A model generated the notes under the pieces. That model saw only the letters and a program-made list of their open reading frames with translations, made no database searches and had not been told where the DNA came from. Position numbers and translations under genes: made by a program. From NCBI GenBank assembly GCA_010015585.1, contig ML975149.1: a stretch of 64,000 bases of DNA; one strand, 5' to 3'. Below, piece after piece: positions 33,087-62,785 of this stretch. Position 1 is the stretch's first letter. Each line of letters starts with the position of its first letter. The DNA is from Eremomyces bilateralis CBS 781.70 (taxonomy: Eukaryota).

Positions 33087-34848
33087 TCAGACCTTGGTCC
33101 AGGTAAATATTAACCCTAAGAAGCTGTCGCGGCGCTTCGTCTTGCGTTCCCGCACCGATTCCCTTTTTGAATCCGCTCGACCGTCTCCCATATTTCCATC
33201 CACTCCAATCTCCTTGTCAAGCCCCGTGGTATATCCTTCCTTGCTCTTGGAGTCCATGTCGACCACACTGATCTGGTCCACGGGAACATCCTTTTCCCTG
33301 GCCAGTCTCCTTACCTCCTTGATTTTCCAAGCCCGTAAGAACACCATACATAGCGCAGCGCCTAGATACATGAAACCCGAGAATAGCTGTGCTCCCCGGT
33401 ATCTCCCCCCGTTAGATTTGACCAACTCCAAACCGATCACTTCACTCGCAATGCATGGGGGTCCGATGACCAGCCACAAGATACTAAGTGCAGCAGGCAA
33501 CTCCTGGAGGCCGACGACCTCCGCCGTAACCGGCGCGATCGTCGCCCAAAAAGTCCCCGCGACCGACCCTCCGAAGAGGGCGAAGGCAACCAATGCCCCA
33601 AAAGAGGTGGCCGGAATCCACCAGACCAGCACGAACACCCCGCACGTCGCCGTCATGGCGGCGCACATATTGATCCTCCCGACGGTATCGCTGAAGTACC
33701 CTACCGGCGGCCTCCCGAGCATCTGCCCCAAGTTCATAATCGCCGCGAGGATGCTCCCCTGCGCCGAAGTGTACCCCAATGACGCCGCATGAGATGGCAA
33801 GCTGAACAGCAACACCACGTACCCCAGCATGCTAAACACGCCGAACGTCGTCAACAGCAGGTACTCGTACCGCGCGAAGAACCGCCACTCGAACGGCGTC
33901 ATCACGCTCTTCACCGCCGCGTGGCGATCGCGTACCAACAGGCTGCAGACCAAGTTGACTACCGTCGTGAGGATCCCGAGGATGCGGAAACACCACGCCA
34001 GCCCTACCTGGCGGATCAACGCCTGCGACGCAAACGAATACACCAATCCCCCCAGCCCGCTCCCTGCGGTGGCGATGCCGTTCGCGAGGCTCCGCCGGCG
34101 CTGGAACCACTGCGGGACGATGCCGACGGAGCCGACGAACAGCATGCCGAGGCCGCAGCCGAAGCAGAGGCCCTGGGAGAGGAAGAGGGGCCATAGCTGG
34201 CCCGGGCGGACGAAGGAGGAGGCGAGGAAGGAGAGGAGGAGGAAGGACGTGCCGAGGAGGAGGGTTGGGCGGGTGCCGAAGGTGTGGAGGAGGTAGGTGG
34301 AGAGGGGGGAGATGAGGAGGGAGACACCGATGGAGAGGCCGCCGATGAGGGCGAAGTCGAGGGGGGAGGCGGAGGGGAAGGTGTTGGTGTTGAGGTAGTG
34401 GGCGAGGAAGACAGCGTACGACTGCGTTTGTTAGCTGGTTTTCGGGGACAATGGCGGTTGGCAGGTTACACACGCTATTCATACCCCATGTGTGGGCATT
34501 GATTCCTGCAACGCAGAGCACACACACCCATCCGTAGCCTCCCTCAGGAGGACCATCTCTTGCCAATGCCACTGTATCTGCTCCCGTCTCAACATCCACC
34601 GCCACCTGCCCCGCGGAACTATTTCCGTCTTCGCTGGTTGCATCGGGGCTCGTGCTCCGTTCGATCGCATCTTCGTCTTTTGCTCTCGAGACCTCCGACG
34701 TGCGATTGCTCGAGATGCGTGACACGGGGGGTTCCAACGCCGTGGCGGATTGCTCAATTGTTAGGTTCGTTGGGTTGTCGGGCCGATCCTGATTTGCATG
34801 GTTGTTGGTATTCAAGGAAGCCGACGCCTCCCGCTTCGCAAACGTCAT
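33087..34848 (-). CDS. MFS monocarboxylate-porter (MCT/Mch-like) transporter, 2 exons
   Basis: PPEGGYGWVCV..INAHTWGMNS, intron, then hydrophobic helices with PQWFQRRRSLANGIATAGSGLGG and GYFSDTVGRIN. Confidence 0.9.
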
Positions 34849-35652
34849 CGGTACATGTACAGGTGCATCAATCCGATCGAATAATGGCAAGATAACGGGA
34901 GAAATACAGCGACGCGGCAAAATATATATATCTAAATTCCCCTCGGGCGAAACGATGACTGGAATTTCCACTCGATCAATTGTGGGTACAGAGCAGAAAA
35001 TCCGTTCCTGATAGCGGCCGCTATTCCTTAGTTTGCTGTGTGGACCCGACTGGAATCCGTTCAGTCAGACTCCGCACATCTCGTACGTAACAACACCAAG
35101 CTCGTCACGAGCGGATACGGATCGCGGTAGGAAGTCGGCCATTTTCCCCTCATCGCGCCCTTCTACCTGCTGCGGCTTACACAGGATGAGTTGCTCTGAC
35201 TTCCAACATCAAGGTACTTTCTGTACGGGAGGTTATTGGACCCTGAAGGCACCTGGTTTTCGGGTAAAACGGCAGCGAGTTGGATGGATGCGATAGGTAC
35301 TCTAGAGTGTAATATCCCTGGGGGTAAAATATGCGTGTTTGGGTACATACTTGCCGCAGCAACACTACGGTAGGATGATACATTGCGGTACTTAGATACC
35401 GGAGTCTAATTCTCTTGTTCCGGATGACAGAATTTCGACATATTCGTGTAGACAAAGTCCGATGCCGGACGGAAAACTCCGGTGCCTCGTAAGCTGTTGA
35501 TTACTGGTTCTATCAGACCATTTGTAAAGAAGCCGGAATATATATACCCGTGGTACGGGTTTGTTCTATCCGTGTGGCATGTCTGGGCTGGAGGTTGAAT
35601 GATGTATCAGGGCAAACGACCAGGTACATCTACTCTTACGAAGATAGATCCA

Positions 35653-37078
35653 TCAAATCCACCCAACCCGATGCCCAAGATAGCTAAACCCTCCAAAGAA
35701 GGCCGTCACTCCAGTAAATGCAATCAACCCTCCATACCCATTGTCATACGCGAACTTCGATCTCCCTCCCCACCCCGTTCCAGCCTTCAACAACACCTCA
35801 CTAAGGGGACCCGAGACCACATTCCCTAAACCCTTCCCGACCGCCAGCAGCGCAAAAATCAACCCCGTATCCGCAGCGTTGTTCACCTTCTGCACATCAC
35901 GCACGATGCCCGACCACGTCGTCGAATAACTCCCGGCGAAAAGCCCGTAGATCATGCTGAACAGGTACAGCAGCGTAAGGTTCGACGCCAGCCCCCAGAA
36001 GAGAAACACCGCGACGCACGTTCCCACCGTCGACAACATGATACACGTCGTGATATGGAACCGATCCACCGCGATTCCCATGAACACGCACCCTACTACG
36101 CTCATCAAGTTCAGCAGCGTCAACGTCAGCGACGACTTGAACCCCGACGCTCCCAGCGCTGTCGCGTGCATCGGCAGGTAGATCGACGGCAGAAAGAACC
36201 CCAGCGACTCGACCACGCTGCCGATCTGCAGCATGCCGAAGACCCGGGTCGTGGCGAACCGGAAATCGAGGCGCCGCGCGTGCATCGCCGGAGAGACCGG
36301 TAGCCGTGGTTTGAGGTAGTAGAGCAGCGGGGCGGTCAGGATGCACACGGCCAGCGCCCAGATGCGCAGGGTGGTACGGAAGCCGTAGGAGTCGAGGAGC
36401 CATTGCATGAGGAAGGGGAGGACGACACCGGCAAGCCCAGTGCCAGCCCACATGATGCCGAAGGCGAGGCCTTTGCGGCGGATGAACCACTCGTTTAAGA
36501 AGAGAATGGTGGGGGAATAGGCGATGGAGCCGCCGATGCCGTAGAGGAGGCCTTGGGTGGCGATGAGGTGGGTGACGGTCTGGGAAAAAGAACTGAGGCC
36601 GAGGGCGAGGCAGAGGATGACCAGGCCGATGACGGCGAAGGGGCGGCGGAGTTTGGGGAAGGCTTTCATGGCACCGAAGACGATAAGGGAGTCGAGGTAC
36701 ATGATTCCGGAGGATACGGTGCCGATTAGGGCGATGTTGCTGGATCCGGCGAACGGTTCATGAGTGCTGTAATATTGCTGGAAGACACCATATGAAAATG
36801 GAAACCCTATATCTTGCTCAGTGTCTCATCGATATAGGTATTAGAACGAAGGAATTACCCCAAACTAAGGACTCGACCATAAACGCCGCGGCCAGGAATA
36901 GCCATGCGTCTTTCCCTCCATCTGCTGGCGGGAGAGAAAACTCCTGAACCCCATCCTGCAATGAAGGCTCTCGATGGTTTCCCTGTGAATCCAGCTCTTG
37001 AGGATTTCCGACACCGGAGTCATCTCCTCTCAACCGAGCAGTCGCAATTGGGCGAAGTTCTACATCCAGGGACTCCAT
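35653..37078 (-). CDS. MFS monocarboxylate-porter (MCT/Mch-like) transporter, 2 exons
   Basis: SLPPADGGKDAWLFLAAAFMVESLVWG|FPFSYGVFQQYY, NEWFIRRKGLAFGIMWAGTGLAG, VDRF. About 12 hydrophobic segments. Confidence 0.92.
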
Positions 37079-48514: not shown

Positions 48515-49621
48515 TCACGCGTAACTAGGAACCTCAACGTTCTTCACAACCACCTTATTATCCTTATTGTTTGCATAATTCGCATCAATACTCCCAAACC
48601 GTATCCTCACCCACTCCCCTGCAGTCACCCCCACCGGCGGCAGCGCTCGATTATTATCCCCTTCAATCTGCCCCCTCTCCAAAAGGGGACTCTTCACTGC
48701 CTGCAAGAGCGTGCTATCGTCCGGCCCAGCGAAGTAGATAACCCCGTACCTTGGAATGTCCCTCTGATCCTCCGGCGGCAGGACCACCCGATGGATGGAG
48801 CTCTCGAGATAGCCTCCGGTGAGGAATGACAAGGTGTCGGCGACGTTGACGGTGATGCTTTCTTTGAGCGGCTTTACCCACTTCCACTTCTTCTCCCCGT
48901 ATGGCCGAACCTGCAGCGCTGCGACCGGCTGTCGCATCAGGAGTGTGAAGGTGCCGAAGTCCGTGTGTCCATATACGTTTTGCTCGATGTTATGCTGCTT
49001 CATGATCTCCAGCTCGTCCGGGGTTCGGGGATGATACAGCATGTATCTGAGATGACACTGGGATTGCGACTCGTAATCATGCAGCTTCCACAGCGCTTCT
49101 TCATCGTCGAGTTCCATGATGATCGCGGACAAGATCAGCAGTCGTCGAAGGACGTATGACGCCAAATGTCTCTGGAACTTCTCCGTCTTTTCCGCGTCAT
49201 CGACAAGCGGCTGTGGTCTCAGCCTCTCTTTGTAGAAGTCGTTCCATTTCGGATCATCGTACAGCTCTAGGCTATCGACTAGACCATGCTGCTGCTTGCG
49301 GCTTCCGCGTGGCTTCCACCCAAAGAACCCCTGCTTTGTGGGGTCGACCCGGTATTTCTGTTTCGCCTCACCAGGTAGATCAAAGATATCTTTGGCGCGA
49401 GCGAATTGGTCGTCGACCTCTTCCTCGGATAGGCCGAAGTTGATCACGTAGAAGAAGCCGACGGTGGAGATGGCATGCTTTAGTTGGGATGCGAGCTTCT
49501 TCTTTCCGCCGGGTTCGTCGAATTGAGAAAGGTCAATGGTCACTAGGTCGGCCCACTCGAGATCCGCAGTAGTCTCTGGTATATCTTGATATCGAGTGTA
49601 CTCAGTGGCAGTCATCGTCAT
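48515..49621 (-). CDS. 2-oxoglutarate/Fe(II)-dependent oxygenase (IPNS/DIOX_N type)
   Basis: LVTIDLS, VGFFYVINFG, HxD (GHTDFGTFTLL), distal His (SSIHRVV), 2OG-binding Arg (RYGVIYF). Confidence 0.92.
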   Translation of the reverse strand: MTMTATEYTRYQDIPETTADLEWADLVTIDLSQFDEPGGKKKLASQLKHAISTVGFFYVINFGLSEEEVDDQFARAKDIFDLPGEAKQKYRVDPTKQGFFGWKPRGSRKQQHGLVDSLELYDDPKWNDFYKERLRPQPLVDDAEKTEKFQRHLASYVLRRLLILSAIIMELDDEEALWKLHDYESQSQCHLRYMLYHPRTPDELEIMKQHNIEQNVYGHTDFGTFTLLMRQPVAALQVRPYGEKKWKWVKPLKESITVNVADTLSFLTGGYLESSIHRVVLPPEDQRDIPRYGVIYFAGPDDSTLLQAVKSPLLERGQIEGDNNRALPPVGVTAGEWVRIRFGSIDANYANNKDNKVVVKNVEVPSYA

Positions 49622-50606
49622 GTTGACTGATTTTTAGTTTGATACCCTCCTGTCCTTGTATGGCCGGATGAGGATCACAGAAACCAATGAACTTGGATAT
49701 ATGAACATTGCCTATCTTGTAGCAGTACTAATAAATTTTGACTCCAGAACCATTCCCATTATTCCCTTATATAAACTTGACCTAAGTTTGTCATTGCGCT
49801 TTGTGGTTAGCAAAACGCGGGGATTTATAGAACCCCACCACGGCCATTAGCCGGTTAGCCCCTATTGCTGAAGGAAGCCTCAAGTCCTCGCAACATCTAC
49901 TTCTTACTTCTAGAGGTTAAGATATATCTATCTAGCTGATGCCTTCTGGTACACGGAATATGCTCTGGTATTACGAAGTGCTTCATCAACGTCATAGCCA
50001 CACACGGCGTCACTTGAAAGTCACGCCCTTCTCCTCTTCCTTTCTTGGCGCAGTTTCTGCCAGTGCCCAAGGGACTGGCTGTGGGGGAAAGGCTGGGGTT
50101 GTGGGAATGCGATGTGTCGGGCGGGTTTTGGTTTGTAGAGCCGTTTGGATGTTGAGTTTGGATCCTGGGAGACCGAGATGGGTTTGCTACTATTACTGTG
50201 CTAGGATAGTAGTGACCAGACCTTGGCGTGAACCCCTGGTAGCGGAACCGCGAGACACTGTAACTGGTGGGTACCCGGATATTAAGAATCCGTTATTCGA
50301 GGGAATCAAGAAAGCACTGGTATGGTCGGAAGTGTAAGGTAGACCGGGGGTCAGTCCCCCTCAGTCCGCATAACACAGAAAAGGGGTGTCGCGGTGCATG
50401 TAACCAATGAATGAGGTCATGAATTGTATCGCTAAAATTGTACAATACCAATCTGAACCCTACAGCGGACATGCCGAAATAGTCCGGCTCAGAGACAACT
50501 CCTTCCCATCATGACAGACATCCAAGTCTGTGCTGAGGATCATGATAAATCCGCAATGAAATCCCAACGCCCCACAATCCGACCGTCCGGTCGAACATCC
50601 GTCAAA

Positions 50607-51607
50607 CTATAACCTTGAGACATTGGCGTCCTCGGCGTTGGGGTTCACCACCGGGGCAAGCGTGACGTTGTACTCCAATTCTAGCGTCGCCTTCTCGTCG
50701 CCCTCTAGGGGCACGAAGTCGACGACCAGATCGTCCTTGACGGCGAACACGGAGTCGTCCTCGAGATGGGGGTCTTCTTTGGGGAAGATCTGGGTGGTGA
50801 CAGGCTTGTATCCAGCGTGTGTGACCTATTCCAACGTTAATTCTGGCGTGGAGCACTCATTCGGATCGCAACATACCATGAGATGGATATGCGCCGGCCG
50901 CCACGGCGACCTATCCATAGCTGACAGCAGCTTAAACGCCGGCCCCTCCGTCGGCAGCGAATACGCCGTCGGCTTCAACGCGTAGAAATGATACTCCCCG
51001 TTCTCGTTCGTGCGGAACTTCCCCCTTAGGTTGTTCGGCGACTGATTTTCGGGGTCCTGGAAATCGTACTTCCCGTTCGACGACGCCTGCCAGATGTCGA
51101 ACACGGCGCCGGCAATCGGCTTCTTGGTCTCCAGGTCCAGCACCCGCCCGTGCATCAGCGTCACCTGCCCGTCGTGCGGGTCCTGCATGATGCTGTCGCC
51201 GGGGTTGCGGAAGGGGGCGTGCGGGCTCCAGAAGGGGCCGAGGATGGAGGAGGAGGTGGGGATTTCACCGGATTCGGAGACGTGTCTATGGGCGATTTCG
51301 TCGACGAGGCTGGGGAGGGTTAATTTTCGGATTTGGGCGCATTGAGGCTGTGTGGTGCTTACGATTCAAGTCCGATGACGTCTGATATCCGGTGGGCTTC
51401 ATTTCGCTGTGCGGTGCTGATTTGGCCGATTGTGTTCATGAAATTCACGCCGATCATCCACTCGTCGATCGTGAGCTCCACCTCCCGAGCGAAGTCGTGG
51501 ATGTGTGACATGAGCGATCCGAGGACTTCTCTGGTTCGCGGGTCGGTTTTCGGGCCCATGGCCTCCACCACCATCTTGGTGAAGTTCGGATCGAAACGTT
51601 CAGCCAT
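50607..51607 (-). CDS. Intradiol ring-cleavage dioxygenase, probably protocatechuate 3,4-dioxygenase (PrcA-like), 3 exons
   Basis: [77 protein letters not shown] (Tyr/Tyr/His/His Fe ligands), [14 protein letters not shown]. Substrate is inferred from gene neighbours. Confidence 0.9.
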
Positions 51608-52568
51608 TGTGAAATAGGGTATCAGTAGATCGGATTTACCGAAAAACGCTTAAGTGGAATGGGGATAGGGTTTGGCACTGGGATGTTATGTGCAAAAGAC
51701 TTTTGATTGCTCGGAGAGTGGATGGAGGAGAGATATCTTGATATCCGACAGAAACTCGGTCTGGCTTCCGGTATTAATATATAAATAAAAGCTCCATTAC
51801 GATACGGTCCCGACAACCAGAGCCTGGAGAAATAGGAGCTAATACCTAGCCTCATCCCCACAATGGGCCAGGGCGTCCGACTACAATTGACGGCAGATCA
51901 ATCGGCTGTTCTCTTATCCGTCCCAATCCGTCCACTAAAACCGTCGATGGTGCTTGGAGGGAGATCCGATTTTGCATGCCGATGAAATAGATCGCATCAT
52001 GGTCAGGCGTTTCCTAGAGCTTTTCTAGATCTGATCCTCCGGAGAAATTTATCGTCGTGCAGTTTCAGGGCGTCGAAGGATACTGGTTGAGAGCTCTCGA
52101 TGCGATCCGATTGGGAATGGGGAGTCGCAAGACGCAAACTCGCAATGGTCGGGAAACGTGGAGAAGGAAATTCGCCACCTTGTGCTCGGAGTGCATCATC
52201 CAAGATTACCGACTACGGGTGCCGCTGTGGTGGGGCATTTCTGCCCCGCGCCGTTCTGGTGATATAGGTACTGACTAGAATGACAGCACGCGACGCGATT
52301 GTGGGGGGGCAATTTCGGTGATGAGCAATGTGCGGAAGTTTGCCGTTTTTAACATCCATGATCCATCCAGGATTTCAGGCGCATCGTGAACACGGCGAAA
52401 TCTCGGGATTGTGGGGTTCTCGGGACCGTGGGGTTGGTAATTGAGCAATTCATTCGGCTGGCGGATCGTAGCAAAGCTTCCATTCTTCCAGAAACTCCGT
52501 GGAAGCGTGCCAATTGCAGGATATTGAGTCCCGTATATCCGCATTCCGTCTCCTAGGACATAGACATC
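51608..52568. promoter_or_regulatory. Divergent promoter region between the dioxygenase and the carboxymuconate cyclase
   Basis: Head-to-head gene arrangement, AT-rich TATA-like stretch around 51773-51790, recurrent ATCCG/CGGAT words. Confidence 0.5.
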
Positions 52569-53817
52569 ATGCTGCACCATCTGATGATAGGGACTTGGAC
52601 CCCTCCAGGGGCCATATTCACAGTCGAATTCGATGATGAGAAATTGACTTTGAAGCTGGTCAAGCGGACTGCTATACCGCAAGATGAGCCCATCTCATGG
52701 ATGACCTTTGACGTGAGTTACACCTCCCTGGAGGATGACGCGCAAGACTAACTAACACAGAAGTATAGCACTCGAAGAAAAATATATACGGCGCATCAAT
52801 GAAGAAATGGTCGAGCTACACCGTGAAGAGTCCGACTGAAATCGAACATTATGCCTCGCATGAGATTGGAGGCCACCGTATGAACCCTTAAATCGCTTGA
52901 TAAGTAGCCCGGATTGACTCCGAAATAGCATCAGCAACGAGCGCAGAGTCCAACACACGAGCGATCTTCCTTCTAGCAGCGCAAAAGCCCCCCTATAATG
53001 TCTACTGCAATCCATTCTACAAGTTCGCTGGCTACGGCAACATCTTTTCCGTCCACAAGTCTGGGGCACTGAAGGAGAACATCCAAGATTACGAGTATTG
53101 CCCCGAGTCCGCGATCCACGGCATGGTTTTCGACAGCTCTGAGAAATACCTATACTCTGCAGATATGTGGGCGAACAAGATTTGGACGCATAAGAAGGAC
53201 CTGGAGACTGGAACCTTGACGACTGTTGGGAGCGTCGATGCCCCTGATCCGGGAGATCACCCGCGGTGGGTGGAGTTACATCCAGACGGGCACTACCTTT
53301 ATGCCTTGATGGAGGGAGGCAATAGGCTGGGAGTGTATCTGATAGACGAGAAGACACACTTGCCCGTGTTCACTCAGATCACATATCCCCTCATTCCACC
53401 AGGTAAACGACCAGACACCATAATCACTCTTCCACCAACCCACTAATGTCCACAGGAATGGGCACCTCCTTCCCCAAAATGTACCGCTCCGACGTCGTTT
53501 TCCTCTCCCACTCCAAAACCTACCTCTTCGCGACCGCCCGCTCCAACTCGCCCTCTCTAACCGGATACATCTCCGTCTTCAAGATCGGACCGACCGGCAA
53601 TATTGAGCGGCAAATCTGCATGAATCCGACGCCGACCAGCGGCGGTCATTCAAATGCCGTGAGCCCCTGCGACTGGAGCGACGAGTGGCTGGCGCTCACG
53701 GATGATGAGAAAGGGTTTGTGGAGATATATCGGTGGAGAGATGAGTTCTTGGGACGGGTGGCGCATTTGGATATTCCGGAGCCGGGGTTCGGGATGAATG
53801 CGATTTGGTACGATTAA
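52569..53817 (+). CDS. cmcA: 3-carboxy-cis,cis-muconate cyclase (CMLE, beta-propeller), 4 exons
   Basis: MLHHLMIGTWTPPGAIFTVEFDDEKLTLKLVKRTAIPQDEPISWMTFD|HSKKNIYGASMKKWSS is near-identical to Neurospora CMLE as recalled. Also IHGMVFD, DHPRWV, MYRSDV, PTSGGHSNAV, FGMNAIWYD*. Confidence 0.95.
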
Positions 53818-54389
53818 CAGAGCGATAATTGATATCCACTGGCATGTGTCAATCAAGCTGTACTATAACTATAATCATAGACCTGTGTGAATTCTTTGGA
53901 ATATTTATTCCTCGATACATGAATTCCGCCCAAGACGTTTCCCCGATAAATGCCTTCGTTGCTCAAATGGAGCTAGTCCTAACACAGGATAGGGTGTCTC
54001 ACCTTAGCGGCTTAGCTCCAGTCGACATCATCGGTTCAGATTCAGTTGCCGATTTACAACTCCGCCGTGTTTTCCCACGTTTCTTGCCCTCCGACAGATC
54101 CACCTCGATGAGGGCTTGGACCGCTAGAGCTCAAGAGATGCATTTGAATTATCCTTCGGGAGTAATATCGGACATTGCTCCAGCCACGTCACACGTGTTA
54201 ATATTTCCATAATCCACCACTAATTGCAATATGTTGACCTTGCGCTGACAAAGTCTCTATTCGCTTGAACTCAGCCTAGGCGAATATTCCATAATTCTAT
54301 TCTACAATATACCTCTATCCATTGCGTTTAATGTTCTCTAGATACTCATCGGGTGGTTTTATTCGCATCAGACACAATCGGTATTCATC

Positions 54390-56093
54390 ATGTCTTCCAA
54401 ACCAGGGCTCCTCTATGTAACCATGCAACCTAGCCCCTCTCTTCCCATCGAGCGCTTCCACGACTGGTACAACAACGAACACGGTCCGCTCCGTCTGCGC
54501 CTCCCATTTTTCCGCAACGGATTGCGGTACCGCGCGTCGGATCTGAGTTCCGACCAGCTGGCATCGGCAAAGCGCCCGGAATGGCTGGCGATCTACGATG
54601 TGACAGATACGGAGGAGCTGGGGAAGCCGGTGTATACACGGCTGCGAGACGCGGACGTGAAGACGTCGAGGGAGAAGGAGACGATGAAGCAGATCAAAGT
54701 CGACAGGGAGATCTTAGACTTAGCCGGCGAATGGAAGAGTGAGAGCTTCGAAGAGGTGGAGACGCTCCGTGGCGATGTAGAGACGGAGGGCAACGTTCTC
54801 ATGGTCGTGAGCGTGAAACTCCAGCTTAGCAAAGCGGCCGAGGAACAGGTATTGAACTGGTTCCCCTCAGAACATATTCCGCTCGTCTCCAAGTCTCCCG
54901 GCTGGCGCCGCACCCGTCACTTCGTCACTTCGAGTCTCGACGATCAGCACGTACGAACATTCCTTACACTCCATGAATGGGCGCCATCTAATAGCATTGG
55001 CGGGTCGGAGTTTCGGCAAGCCTCGACCATTGAATGGGTGCAACGGCTCAACAAGGAGACGGCCGCAGATATCAGTATCCGGACGTATAACCTGCATCTC
55101 ATCTTCGGATCCGCACCGAGACACCTTGGTGACATCGCCGAATGGTCCTACAGCAACGACATGACCCGCACATTCCCCCCCACCGACCCAACTAGCCCCT
55201 TCGGCAGCGCCATCGAATCCTACATCACCACCCCCGACGGCGCCGCCCTTCCCTTCCGCCTCGAAGGCTCCCCCTCCCCATCCGCCCCCCTCATCGTCTG
55301 CATCAACTCCATCCTCACCACCTATCCCATCTGGGACTCCTTCGTCTCCTCCTTCTTCGCCCACCCGCCCAACCGCCGCTACCGCATCCTCCGTTACAAC
55401 CCCCGCGGCCGCTCCCAACACACCGGCACCGCTCCCGTTTCCATCGACCTCCTCGCCGCCGATGCCATCACCCTCCTCGACGCCCTGCGCGTGCCCAAGG
55501 CCGCGTGCGTCATCGGCGTGTCGCTGGGCGGGATCACGGCGCTGAACACGGCGCTGAAGCACGCGGGGCGGGTGGAGGCGTTCGTGTCGTGCGATACGAA
55601 TGCGCGGGCGCCGCCGAGCAATGCGGCGGCGTGGGACGAGCGGATCGCGGTCGCGGAGAAGGAGGGGTTGACGGCGGATGGGAAGGCGGTGGTGGGAGAG
55701 CGGCTGGCGGAGATGACGGTGCGGCGGTGGTTTGTGGGGGAGAGTTACGATGGGGGGGCGATGGAGCGGGAGGCGGAGCGGGTGAAGGAGATGGTACGGA
55801 CGAATAGTTTGGAGGGGTTCCGGAGGGGGGTGAGGGCGTTGTATGCGTATGATGTTGGGGGTGAGATGGCAGAGGGGAAGGTGAGGGGGTTGTTTGTGGT
55901 GGGGAAGGGGGATGGGGTGTTACCGGATACGATGAAGAAGATGGCGGACGCGTATCGGTGGAGAGGGGCGGATGGGAAAGAGGGAGGGGTGGAGTTGAAG
56001 GTGGTGGATGGGGCGGGACATTTGCCGATGGTGGAACAGGGCGGTGCGGTGGCCAAACTGGTACAGGAGTTCTTGGCTGAAGTACCGGTATAG
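54390..56093 (+). CDS. Fusion of EthD-like dimeric alpha/beta barrel(s) and a PcaD-like alpha/beta-hydrolase; probable 3-carboxymuconolactone hydrolase/decarboxylase (ChdA-like)
   Basis: N-terminal FHDWYNNEHGPLRLRLP..WLAIYD and a second repeat NWFPSEHIPLVSKSPGWRRTR. C-terminal hydrolase with YNPRGRS, nucleophile GVSLGG, VGKGDG and GAGHLPMVE. Confidence 0.8.
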   Translation: MSSKPGLLYVTMQPSPSLPIERFHDWYNNEHGPLRLRLPFFRNGLRYRASDLSSDQLASAKRPEWLAIYDVTDTEELGKPVYTRLRDADVKTSREKETMKQIKVDREILDLAGEWKSESFEEVETLRGDVETEGNVLMVVSVKLQLSKAAEEQVLNWFPSEHIPLVSKSPGWRRTRHFVTSSLDDQHVRTFLTLHEWAPSNSIGGSEFRQASTIEWVQRLNKETAADISIRTYNLHLIFGSAPRHLGDIAEWSYSNDMTRTFPPTDPTSPFGSAIESYITTPDGAALPFRLEGSPSPSAPLIVCINSILTTYPIWDSFVSSFFAHPPNRRYRILRYNPRGRSQHTGTAPVSIDLLAADAITLLDALRVPKAACVIGVSLGGITALNTALKHAGRVEAFVSCDTNARAPPSNAAAWDERIAVAEKEGLTADGKAVVGERLAEMTVRRWFVGESYDGGAMEREAERVKEMVRTNSLEGFRRGVRALYAYDVGGEMAEGKVRGLFVVGKGDGVLPDTMKKMADAYRWRGADGKEGGVELKVVDGAGHLPMVEQGGAVAKLVQEFLAEVPV

Positions 56094-60409: not shown

Positions 60410-62125
60410 TCATTTGGTGGAATCTTGAACTTTGTACAATATCCTAATGACGACAGGTCTGATTTTGAGAGGGGGAGAATTGACTGTAAATTGAAAGCGC
60501 TTCTCCAGAATCTGTACAGTCCCTTTAGCGCCTTTGAAACGCTCATCTGGTTTGCTGCGATTTACAGCGTTATTATCGTCAAGGACATTGAATCGTCCAG
60601 AATCAAGATCCTTTTTGGTAATCCCATATGTCCATCCATCTCCGAGGTACGTTTGACAATCGGCATCAGGGACTGGGAAACTGATACGAAGCGTCGTTCC
60701 ATCCTTGAGAGGTAAGTTAAATGATGCGTCCTCGCGTCCTACAGGTAACGTCGCTTCGTCTTTGTAAAAAGATACGTTAAGCCATGCGTTTTGTTTAGGT
60801 GTGGTGACTGGCGGTATGGGGACTAATCCATACGTGTATTTGTATTCCCAGACGTCAGGGGCTCCTCCTTGTTTTCCAGGCAGGAGTGTATCATGTGATA
60901 TATCGCCACACAGAATGGGTAGGATGGCGTCGGTGTAGGGGATACCATCTAGCTCGAAGCGCTCTCGGGCATCAGGCGCAGGAGGTTTCCAAGGCTTCCG
61001 TCGAACGTCGAACGTCGAACCTTGGATGCATATATCTTCTGCCGACCCTCCGACCTCGGATGGAAGGAGTACGGCTGCTGGAGGGAAAGAAATTCGACGA
61101 TAAAAAGACTTCCCCAGGCGCGATCGATTGGAGTTAAGAGGTATGCATGCTCGGCCGTGCTCTTGTCCAGACCGCGAGGATGCCTCCAACATGGCATAAC
61201 AGCCGCTCAGTGTTGTCACCAACGGTAGGGTTATTCTCAAGCCCACGCTTGTAATGTGAAAGGTGGAGGTGGGAGCGTGGTGAGTTGTTACTAGATTAGT
61301 TGCCACAAATTGCCCGCAGTTTTTGAATACGGCTGGGGAAGGGGCCAGGAAACTTCTCCAGAAAATAGGAACGGCGGGGGTCCAACTCCAGCAAAACATC
61401 GTGTGGTCATTGGAGACTTTGATTATCTCTTCTTGGAGCCTCAAGAAAGCCTTGCTTCCTTCACCGTATAGAAGCGGCATGTTGATGTTAAACAGACCAA
61501 GCATACAGTAAGCCATGTCCTCTGGCCGGGTCGTCGATCGTGATGCTAGCCAGGACATCCTCTCCGCCACGCTGCACCAAAAGAAATCTGGATCCTCTTG
61601 GAGATATTGCCCACGGATCCCGGTGATTTGGGATATAAGAGAACCCATGGACAACTTCGTTCCGAACTCGGCCCATCGCTTGTCGAAAAAGACGAGGTTC
61701 CCAGGAGCAATTAGCTCTTGGAGGGTCCAGCCTCTAGTAAACCATCGGGAAGAAGATAGACTCACCAACGGGTCTTGTCCGTCTTCCGGGGCCCATTCGA
61801 AGTCCTCTAGAAAGGTGAAGCACACGTGTGAGTCTCGATACCACATATACATCGAGTTGATGGCCTCCGAGAGCTCCGCGGAGCTTGACTTGTCGATACA
61901 GTTGGTGTCGACCCATATGTACTCTAGGTCCCAAGTGAGTGTTTGCTTGCAAGCATTTCTGATCTTCTCGGCCCCTTTCGTGGATGCCGTGCGTTTCTCG
62001 GGGTCCTGCCAGTCCTGAAGACTGACTTCTTCGTCGCACCAGGTATGAGAGAGAATGGCATAGGGAGGAAACTCTGGGCCGAAAAAGTCCTCCAAGTGGA
62101 GGGTTCGGGCATTGATTAAACGCAT
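60410..62125 (-). CDS. HET-domain (heterokaryon incompatibility) protein
   Basis: MRLINARTLHLEDF..PPYAILSHTW, YIWVDTNCIDKSSSAELSEAINSMYMWY, SRWFTRGWTLQELIAP, TTRPEDMAYCMLGLFNINMPLLYGEG..AFLRLQEEI. Confidence 0.93.
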   Translation of the reverse strand: MRLINARTLHLEDFFGPEFPPYAILSHTWCDEEVSLQDWQDPEKRTASTKGAEKIRNACKQTLTWDLEYIWVDTNCIDKSSSAELSEAINSMYMWYRDSHVCFTFLEDFEWAPEDGQDPLVSLSSSRWFTRGWTLQELIAPGNLVFFDKRWAEFGTKLSMGSLISQITGIRGQYLQEDPDFFWCSVAERMSWLASRSTTRPEDMAYCMLGLFNINMPLLYGEGSKAFLRLQEEIIKVSNDHTMFCWSWTPAVPIFWRSFLAPSPAVFKNCGQFVATNLVTTHHAPTSTFHITSVGLRITLPLVTTLSGCYAMLEASSRSGQEHGRACIPLNSNRSRLGKSFYRRISFPPAAVLLPSEVGGSAEDICIQGSTFDVRRKPWKPPAPDARERFELDGIPYTDAILPILCGDISHDTLLPGKQGGAPDVWEYKYTYGLVPIPPVTTPKQNAWLNVSFYKDEATLPVGREDASFNLPLKDGTTLRISFPVPDADCQTYLGDGWTYGITKKDLDSGRFNVLDDNNAVNRSKPDERFKGAKGTVQILEKRFQFTVNSPPLKIRPVVIRILYKVQDSTK

Positions 62126-62785
62126 CCGTGGAATAAATTCAATGATCGCCGGCTCTTCAATGTCTGCTGGACAAACTGGAAACACGGAAGGAATAGTTTG
62201 AAAGGTGAGCACGCAAGTTGACAACCCGACTTTGATGAAGACTAGGCTGAAGTTTATAGGCCATTTTTCGAGGATCGGCACTGCTCCAAATGCACCAGGC
62301 TTTCTGAATTTCCCAGCCTGACATCTGGCAATTCGAATAGACTTGGGATTAGGGTGTGTTACATACAACTAAAACCTTGAAGTTGATGGGCTAGGATGCG
62401 GACACAGGGCGTGGCAGTGCTCGCCAATCCGTCCAAACCAACTATCACCATCAAGCTTTCCTCTATCAAAGTCATCTACTCTCGAATCAGAGAACCACAA
62501 GTAGTTTGATATCCCTTGGCTAGAGCTTAACGGCCTTAGGTTGGTAAACTCAATCCACTATAGAAGAGCAATGTGATGCATGACTATGGAATCATCGTGT
62601 GTTTAAAGGAAAGAGGTTCGCATTACGTGGTGGTTTTGAGGGTTTACTGGGCTTCTGTGATGTGCGACGCCGCAAATATAACAGGTATATCTCGATGTAA
62701 TTGTGCGTTGCGGTTCCAAGGCATAGGAAGTCTCGCCAGGGATACACTGGGTTCCCTTACAGCCGGTTGCCTCTTTTCATTAATA

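Follow-up and report, generated by a model that had tools for sequence, protein, structure and literature searches.

Purified PrcA, CmcA and ChdA of Aspergillus niger suffice in vitro to take protocatechuate, an aromatic acid of plant origin, stepwise to 3-oxoadipate (PMC10406623), and it is with this system, and with a number of partly described gene clusters, that three adjacent genes of the Dothideomycete Eremomyces bilateralis are compared here. The genes lie at positions 50607-56093 of a 64-kb stretch of contig ML975149.1 (hereafter the window) and encode a PrcA-type dioxygenase, a CmcA cyclase and a ChdA fusion protein. According to PMC8283699, A. nidulans and Scedosporium have their protocatechuate genes dispersed. 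In A. niger, prcA (NRRL3_01405) and chdA (NRRL3_01409) are four locus tags apart (PMC10406623), in A. oryzae cmcA and chdA (AO090023000419/421) are two tags apart (PMC12335040), and in A. fumigatus chdA, cmcA and a CMD gene carry the tags AFUA_6G11570/11580/11590 (PMC13094099). The cyclase gene adjoins a dioxygenase gene throughout the Ceratocystidaceae (PMC8896014), “clusters” of catechol and protocatechuate genes, with CLAIMM_03466/03467, were reported in Cladophialophora (PMC5595782), and supplement rows of PMC13094099, a paper that also credits AN10520 to Martins et al. 2019, list a protocatechuate cluster in Rhodotorula (RHTO_05019-05022). Cluster models for aromatic ring dioxygenases were presented by Gluck-Thaler and Slot (10.1101/184242).

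The original prediction for this DNA held that the genes are dispersed in model Aspergilli and that a compact cluster of them may be little described. The former is correct for A. nidulans, but not for A. fumigatus (chdA/cmcA/CMD), A. oryzae (cmcA/chdA) and A. niger (prcA/chdA), where the genes are partly linked; the latter has to be given up, as partial clusters have been published for A. fumigatus, A. oryzae, A. niger, Cladophialophora, the Ceratocystidaceae and Rhodotorula. A literature search, mostly at the depth of bibliographic entries, found no statement of a four-gene layout across the Pezizomycotina, of a promoter motif or of localisation signals. Martins et al. 2019 is, according to papers that cite it, reportedly a gene-cluster survey of these pathways, and probably describes this cluster. 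The locus in the window is a three-gene member of this common, partly published cluster, and the probability that it represents a vertically inherited three-gene form of a protocatechuate cluster widespread in Pezizomycotina is put at roughly 0.92.

All three genes are intact and either spliced or single-exon. The prcA orthologue, for protocatechuate 3,4-dioxygenase (50607..51607, minus strand; exons 51607-51363, 51309-50877 and 50825-50607), encodes 298 amino acids, cmcA (52569..53817, plus strand; 4 exons) encodes 362, and the chdA orthologue, for 3-carboxymuconolactone hydrolase/decarboxylase (54390..56093, plus strand; 1 exon), encodes 567. A divergent intergenic region of 961 bp (51608..52568) separates prcA from cmcA, and a spacer of 572 bp separates cmcA from chdA. 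The exon models thereby confirm the coordinates and orientation first proposed, with the dioxygenase divergent from the cyclase and the hydrolase fusion following. Contigs of a run that was guessed to be RNA (X1), and that is stored as contigs so that expression cannot be ranked, skip all five introns of prcA and cmcA at canonical ends, which points to spliced transcripts of both genes; the boundaries of cmcA intron 2 (52878-52928) were set from them, giving the protein of 362 residues. One spliced contig of this run (window 51363-53715) holds prcA exon 1, the entire divergent region and cmcA; it is not proof of a single transcript, and may stem from 5′ ends that overlap or from DNA present in the run. 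The trio is not a chance grouping, because the 26.9-Mb genome has one copy each of the cyclase and the hydrolase fusion, and its two other intradiol dioxygenases, on other contigs, are only 37-41% identical.

Fungal PrcA has been defined as an enzyme of one subunit with Dioxygenase_N and Dioxygenase_C domains and an iron site of two tyrosines and two histidines (PMC12420386). The window dioxygenase, which is database protein P0121 letter for letter (compared by eye), is of the same single-subunit type with both Pfam domains, and its predicted iron ligands Tyr163, Tyr198, His222 and His224 align with those of solved intradiol enzymes. Where an A. niger prcA oligonucleotide encodes HRICDVIGL, the window protein has HRISDVIGL, the A. 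niger peptides here and below having been translated by eye from oligonucleotides in supplement 1 of PMC10406623. Arginine occupies position 73 of the window protein and the equivalent position in 109/109 motif-matching homologues (11 of the 120 examined did not fit the pattern), as against leucine in five solved enzymes among the PDB matches and in both intradiol paralogues of the genome. We take position 73 to line the substrate pocket, where Arg73 would bind the substrate carboxylate. Identity divides the proteins in the same manner, at 59-76% to 119 homologues versus 37-44% to the two paralogues, one of which is a hydroxyquinol-like dioxygenase and the other apparently broken and probably of the catechol type. 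Motif, Arg73 and identity thus set the window protein within the PrcA clade and apart from catechol and hydroxyquinol dioxygenases. By analogy with A. niger PrcA, which is active on protocatechuate and inactive on catechol (PMC10406623), it would cleave protocatechuate and not catechol.

Exon 3 of cmcA alone matched the Neurospora crassa cyclase 1JOF with an E value of 3.9e-70, the next match being at 7.8e-08. The window CmcA is a seven-bladed lactonase propeller close to 1JOF, the sole gene of its type found in the genome, and in the alignment it retains His148, Arg196 and Glu212 of 1JOF, presumably the catalytic residues; its C-terminal end, GFGMNAIWYD, is identical to the A. niger cmcA primer peptide. 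ChdA combines an N-terminal tandem ferredoxin-like domain of the EthD/ABM type (54390..55121, plus strand), for which a decarboxylase or isomerase role may be supposed, with a C-terminal, PcaD-like alpha/beta-hydrolase domain (55218..56090, plus strand), whose Ser378, Asp508 and His544 are invariant in 24/24 aligned proteins. The best PDB sequence match, over residues 282-564, was the 3-oxoadipate enol-lactonase 2XUA, which came second by fold and is also the best structural match reported for A. niger ChdA (PMC10406623). The motif HGPLRLR is identical to an A. niger chdA oligonucleotide peptide, again by eye. The EthD (PF07110) match of the N-terminal domain is weak in the window protein (16.6 bits, E 0.018; curated cut-off 22 bits), as is a DUF4286 match in the same half, and an EthD match at E<=0.1 was obtained for 25/26 aligned ChdA members, the best at 5.9e-07. 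A predicted structure of the N-terminal 244 residues (pLDDT 83) forms a tandem ferredoxin-like alpha+beta barrel that aligns with 6QPA (Z 16.7, rmsd 3.3, 221 aligned) and 5F9P (Z 15.1, rmsd 3.6, 211 aligned); the modelled fold belongs to the EthD superfamily, a shared fold that proves no function. Muconolactone isomerase and methylmuconolactone isomerase, which we take to be of the same barrel superfamily, were absent from the listed fold and Pfam matches of this domain, although a relation is still possible. FAMeDB lists IPR011008, the dimeric alpha-beta barrel, for ChdA (PMC13094099), and the barrel fold is therefore not new. With a mass of about 60 kDa, an N-terminal dimeric alpha-beta barrel, a C-terminal PcaD-like hydrolase, an intact triad and a single full-length copy, the window protein has the properties of ChdA, and it would convert 3-carboxymuconolactone to 3-oxoadipate, as demonstrated for A. 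niger ChdA (PMC10406623).

The EthD-like/alpha-beta-hydrolase anatomy first proposed for the fusion was upheld by the domain matches and the predicted fold, and the assignment of PrcA, CmcA and ChdA, with all three steps in the cluster, is sustained by the A. niger peptide motifs, 1JOF and 2XUA. The reactions of the A. niger enzymes very probably carry over to the window genes by orthology. PrcA would then use Fe(III) and O2 to open protocatechuate between its hydroxyls, giving 3-carboxy-cis,cis-muconate, which CmcA would cyclise to 3-carboxymuconolactone. The N-terminal barrel domain of ChdA would presumably remove CO2, and the C-terminal Ser-Asp-His domain would hydrolyse the lactone to 3-oxoadipate; a division of labour between decarboxylation in the N-domain and hydrolysis in the C-domain is likewise what the authors of PMC10406623 inferred.

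The frequency of the arrangement was followed in metagenome contigs, scanned with a ChdA alignment. The scan gave 205 relatives, the best 80 of which were kept and represent 66 loci, or 51 groups at 95% nucleotide identity; 30 of these groups, with less than 5 kb upstream of chdA, were left out, so that 21 informative loci remained. cmcA adjoins chdA in 18 of the 21, and the layout of the window, prcA(-), cmcA(+), chdA(+), is found in 13, with a CMD/AhpD gene in addition in 11 of these 13. Of the other eight, three lack prcA but hold CMD, cmcA and chdA, two contain cmcA alone, and in the last three the flank contains none of these genes. If the short loci are included, the trio is present in 18 of the 51 groups. 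The distance from prcA to cmcA in 21 related loci is 563-1129 bp between matched ends, and in a quick ChdA tree the clustered loci fall on several deep branches. Locus tags carried by named matches tell the same: the tag of prcA directly adjoins that of cmcA in Agyrium, Neodothiora, Chaenotheca, Malbranchea and Emmonsiellopsis, the tag of cmcA directly adjoins that of chdA in Coniosporium, Hypocenomyce and Mollisiaceae, and prcA and chdA are two tags apart in Coniosporium and Trypethelium. This evidence counts positives only, most matches bearing no tag, and it spans Dothideomycetes, Lecanoromycetes, Coniocybomycetes, Eurotiomycetes and Leotiomycetes, the class having been checked for five of the names. 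The simplest reading is that of an old cluster which was split up in some lineages, and the sample already suggests a trio in the common ancestor of the Pezizomycotina classes. The suggestion of a lineage-specific cluster is not supported, given the same layout in 13/21 informative loci, the deep spread in the ChdA tree and the five classes, and the claim of novelty fails because moulds of many distant lineages share this layout.

Several points weigh against the interpretation of the locus as a widespread, inherited protocatechuate cluster. The case for orthology comes from shared short motifs, from synteny and from copy number, not from full-length alignment with the A. niger proteins. The best PDB sequence matches of the window dioxygenase are PnpC and hydroxyquinol-type enzymes, and none of its 19 PDB matches is labelled as a fungal PrcA. 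Eight of the 21 informative loci are without the full trio inside the fetched flank, and the cluster is therefore common, not universal. Finally, no strict copy of CGGCA-N8-CGG, the promoter element described below, was found in the chdA promoter of the window.

These PDB matches would suit the idea of a role for the genes in the catechol or hydroxyquinol branch, as would the names given to homologues in databases (“catechol 1,2-dioxygenase”, “muconate cycloisomerase”, “3-oxoadipate enol-lactonase”) and the placement of such gene pairs in the catechol branch by PMC8896014 and PMC5595782. However, A. niger PrcA carries the same label, “catechol 1,2-dioxygenase”, in a supplement table of PMC10406623 and yet acts on protocatechuate, not catechol; moreover, the PrcA motif is present in the window protein, and separate hydroxyquinol-like and apparently broken, probably catechol-type dioxygenases exist in the genome, which leaves this idea very improbable. 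The apparently broken dioxygenase gene (L087:4319-5270, on contig C2 of this genome) is interrupted by an in-frame stop and apparently by a frameshift and, since no second cyclase paralogue was found either, this fungus may be losing its catechol branch, although the interruptions may also come from an error in the assembly.

That the cluster is lineage-specific, newly assembled or horizontally acquired was suggested by its flanks (2OG-Fe oxygenase, SUR7, a flavin reductase-like gene and an unknown open reading frame), which are unmatched in 66 related loci, and by the window ChdA, a long branch that one quick tree of 41 rows pairs, at 96%, with a protein from Rutstroemia. Among 120 homologues these two (the latter P0007) are also the only ones with a short insert near the ChdA C-terminus (window 55951-55995). 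The identical order and orientation in 13/13 trio-holding loci of the 21 informative ones and the linkage in five fungal classes argue against such an origin; with 120 sequences the support for the Rutstroemia grouping is 0.02, and PrcA joins Dothideomycetes proteins at 0.80. Horizontal transfer, a hint from one quick tree that is unsupported with 120 sequences per gene, was rejected, there being no supported foreign placement in the three gene trees, and there is only a slight chance that any version of this explanation is right.

The usual fourth member of the cluster was overlooked in the original prediction and is absent from the window cluster: the CMD/AhpD gene, orthologue of NRRL3_00837/AN5232, had no match anywhere in the 64-kb window. 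The orthologue of this genome lies on contig C4 (L085:4891-5343, minus strand; unreadable in its 5′ part), flanked by a transketolase-like gene and a transposase-like open reading frame. It shares 41-56% identity with 18 copies from clusters, as against 24-36% for the one further member of the family that was found. The cluster CMD gene matches the NRRL3_00837 oligonucleotide peptide FLGAIRTQT (by eye). NRRL3_00837 is essential for growth of A. niger on protocatechuate, its function being given as unknown, and is without effect on the ChdA reaction in vitro (PMC10406623). The presence of CMD in 11/13 clusters gives genomic support to the view that CMD/AhpD belongs to the pathway. An isovaleryl-CoA dehydrogenase-like gene also recurs near the cluster (L014, L038, L040, L042, L057, L066 and L067), in six cases beside CMD. 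Apparent PrcA-CMD-acyl-CoA dehydrogenase “fusions” of 860-950 amino acids were discarded as likely merged gene models, since in L014, L038, L042, L066 and L067 some 300-1500 bp lie between the stretches that encode the parts; merged models of this kind, of 570-950 amino acids, are numerous among Pleosporales database proteins (e.g., P0134, P0158, P0163, P0165 and P0166) and are probably annotation errors caused by tight gene spacing.

The divergent prcA/cmcA region of the window has two copies of a candidate cis-element, CGGCA-N8-CGG, both on the minus strand (51966..51981 and 52209..52224). Sites of the Zn2Cys6 type typically have CGG repeats, and this would be one of them, through which prcA and cmcA, with their common divergent promoter, would probably be co-induced. 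The element was found in 12/19 divergent promoters (1.18 per kb) and in 9/19 chdA promoters (0.84 per kb), having been selected on the same promoter set in which it was counted, with many of its carriers closely related. The background in 301 kb of flanking DNA is 0.056 per kb, the divergent promoters being about 20-fold higher, and among shuffled sequences about 0.5 would be expected to have the element. Spacing matters in the divergent promoters, where variants with N5, N9, N10 and N11 occur in 0/19 and those with N6 and N7 in 4 and 6, respectively. In a held-out set, the element was present in 5/14 chdA upstream regions, from about two lineages, and in 0/18 CMD upstream regions. Among five other genes of the aromatic-catabolism type in the E. 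bilateralis genome, three have it within about 700 bp upstream (sites at L092:3968, L086:4296 and L087:3673): a PF07976 monooxygenase, the hydroxyquinol-like and the catechol-like dioxygenase; it was not found upstream of the remaining two, a CoA-transferase and a second monooxygenase. Of the protein regulating the protocatechuate genes, PMC12610400 states that it “has not been identified”, and CGGCA-N8-CGG is a candidate for its site, offering a concrete promoter target with which to find it. Other enriched promoter words (TGCCCCGC, TGGCGAAT, GCGTCGCG and TGACCATG) were set aside, as they come mostly from few closely related loci and TGACCATG is largely coding sequence at the cmcA start.

The window PrcA ends in SRL (50610..50618, minus strand), which resembles a type 1 peroxisomal targeting signal (PTS1). 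A strict PTS1 ending is found in 40/102 unmerged PrcA homologues, 18 merged or long models having been excluded, versus 1/120 for ChdA and 0/120 for CmcA; the other 62 of the 102 have none. These endings suggest that ring cleavage may be peroxisomal in many species. In A. niger, caffeate is converted to protocatechuate via a predicted peroxisomal beta-oxidation (PMC8140964), and such oxidation of hydroxycinnamates would release protocatechuate in the peroxisomes, where PrcA would act. No intradiol dioxygenase was found in the main-text passages of a paper on Histoplasma peroxisomes (PMC13343957). Of the CMD genes in clusters, 16, some of them near duplicates, have a start that can be read; among these, 11 have an in-frame upstream methionine that adds 25-46 basic, acid-poor residues (L038, L040, L042, L045, L046, L054, L056, L060, L066, L067 and L068), and five are without such a leader. 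Judged by its composition, the leader resembles a mitochondrial presequence, and dual starts of the CMD genes are possible. The strings “mitochond”, “peroxisom” and “localiz” are absent from the main text of PMC10406623. The joint proposal, that CGGCA-N8-CGG binds a regulator and marks a wider aromatic regulon in this genome, with PrcA peroxisomal, CmcA and ChdA cytosolic, and CMD/AhpD at least partly mitochondrial, is tentative, and the odds are somewhat against it as a whole. If the compartment split were true, it would account for the need for NRRL3_00837 in growth in spite of its lack of effect on the ChdA reaction in vitro.

The neighbours of the trio in the window are unrelated to it by Pfam, with a 2OG-Fe(II) oxygenase on the left and SUR7 and HET genes on the right. 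The oxygenase gene (DIOX_N; 48515-49633, minus strand), about 1 kb downstream of prcA, is unmatched in 66 related loci and therefore probably lies outside the cluster. A HET-domain protein gene (PF06985) is at 60410-62368 (minus strand), and two adjacent MFS_1 transporter genes (33087-36825, minus strand) lie about 14 kb from the cluster. In A. niger, NRRL3_01404, annotated as an acetate transporter beside prcA, is induced 69-fold on protocatechuate (PMC10406623) and is a candidate for the pathway transporter.

Compared with A. niger, the window has the same protein types (PrcA NRRL3_01405, CmcA NRRL3_02586, ChdA NRRL3_01409), the same ChdA size and two-domain build and matching short motifs, whereas in A. 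niger three unrelated genes stand between prcA and chdA, and cmcA is elsewhere; in the window all three are adjacent. chdA and cmcA are neighbours by tag in A. fumigatus and A. oryzae, as in the window, but A. fumigatus has CMD beside cmcA and A. oryzae has prcA elsewhere (AO090038000040), while the window cluster has prcA inside and CMD outside. The basidiomycete clusters (Rhodotorula, Pleurotus; FAMeDB, from Martins et al. 2019) likewise bring together a dioxygenase, a cyclase and a hydrolase, although in the entries for them the dioxygenase is basidiomycete-specific and the hydrolase is fused to AhpD, not to an EthD-like domain. Also similar is the four-gene CMD-prcA-cmcA-chdA cluster of other Pezizomycotina (L014, L036, L038, L042, L056, L057, L060, L066, L067 and others), in which the order, orientation and similar spacing of the trio are those of the window and the promoter motif is common to many loci and the window; it includes CMD/AhpD and the window cluster does not, and L022 and L044 are three-gene clusters as well. 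The comparison yields localisation predictions for PrcA and CMD/AhpD, and such side leads are worth more than the cluster itself, which is a further instance of a widespread layout with characterised enzymes.

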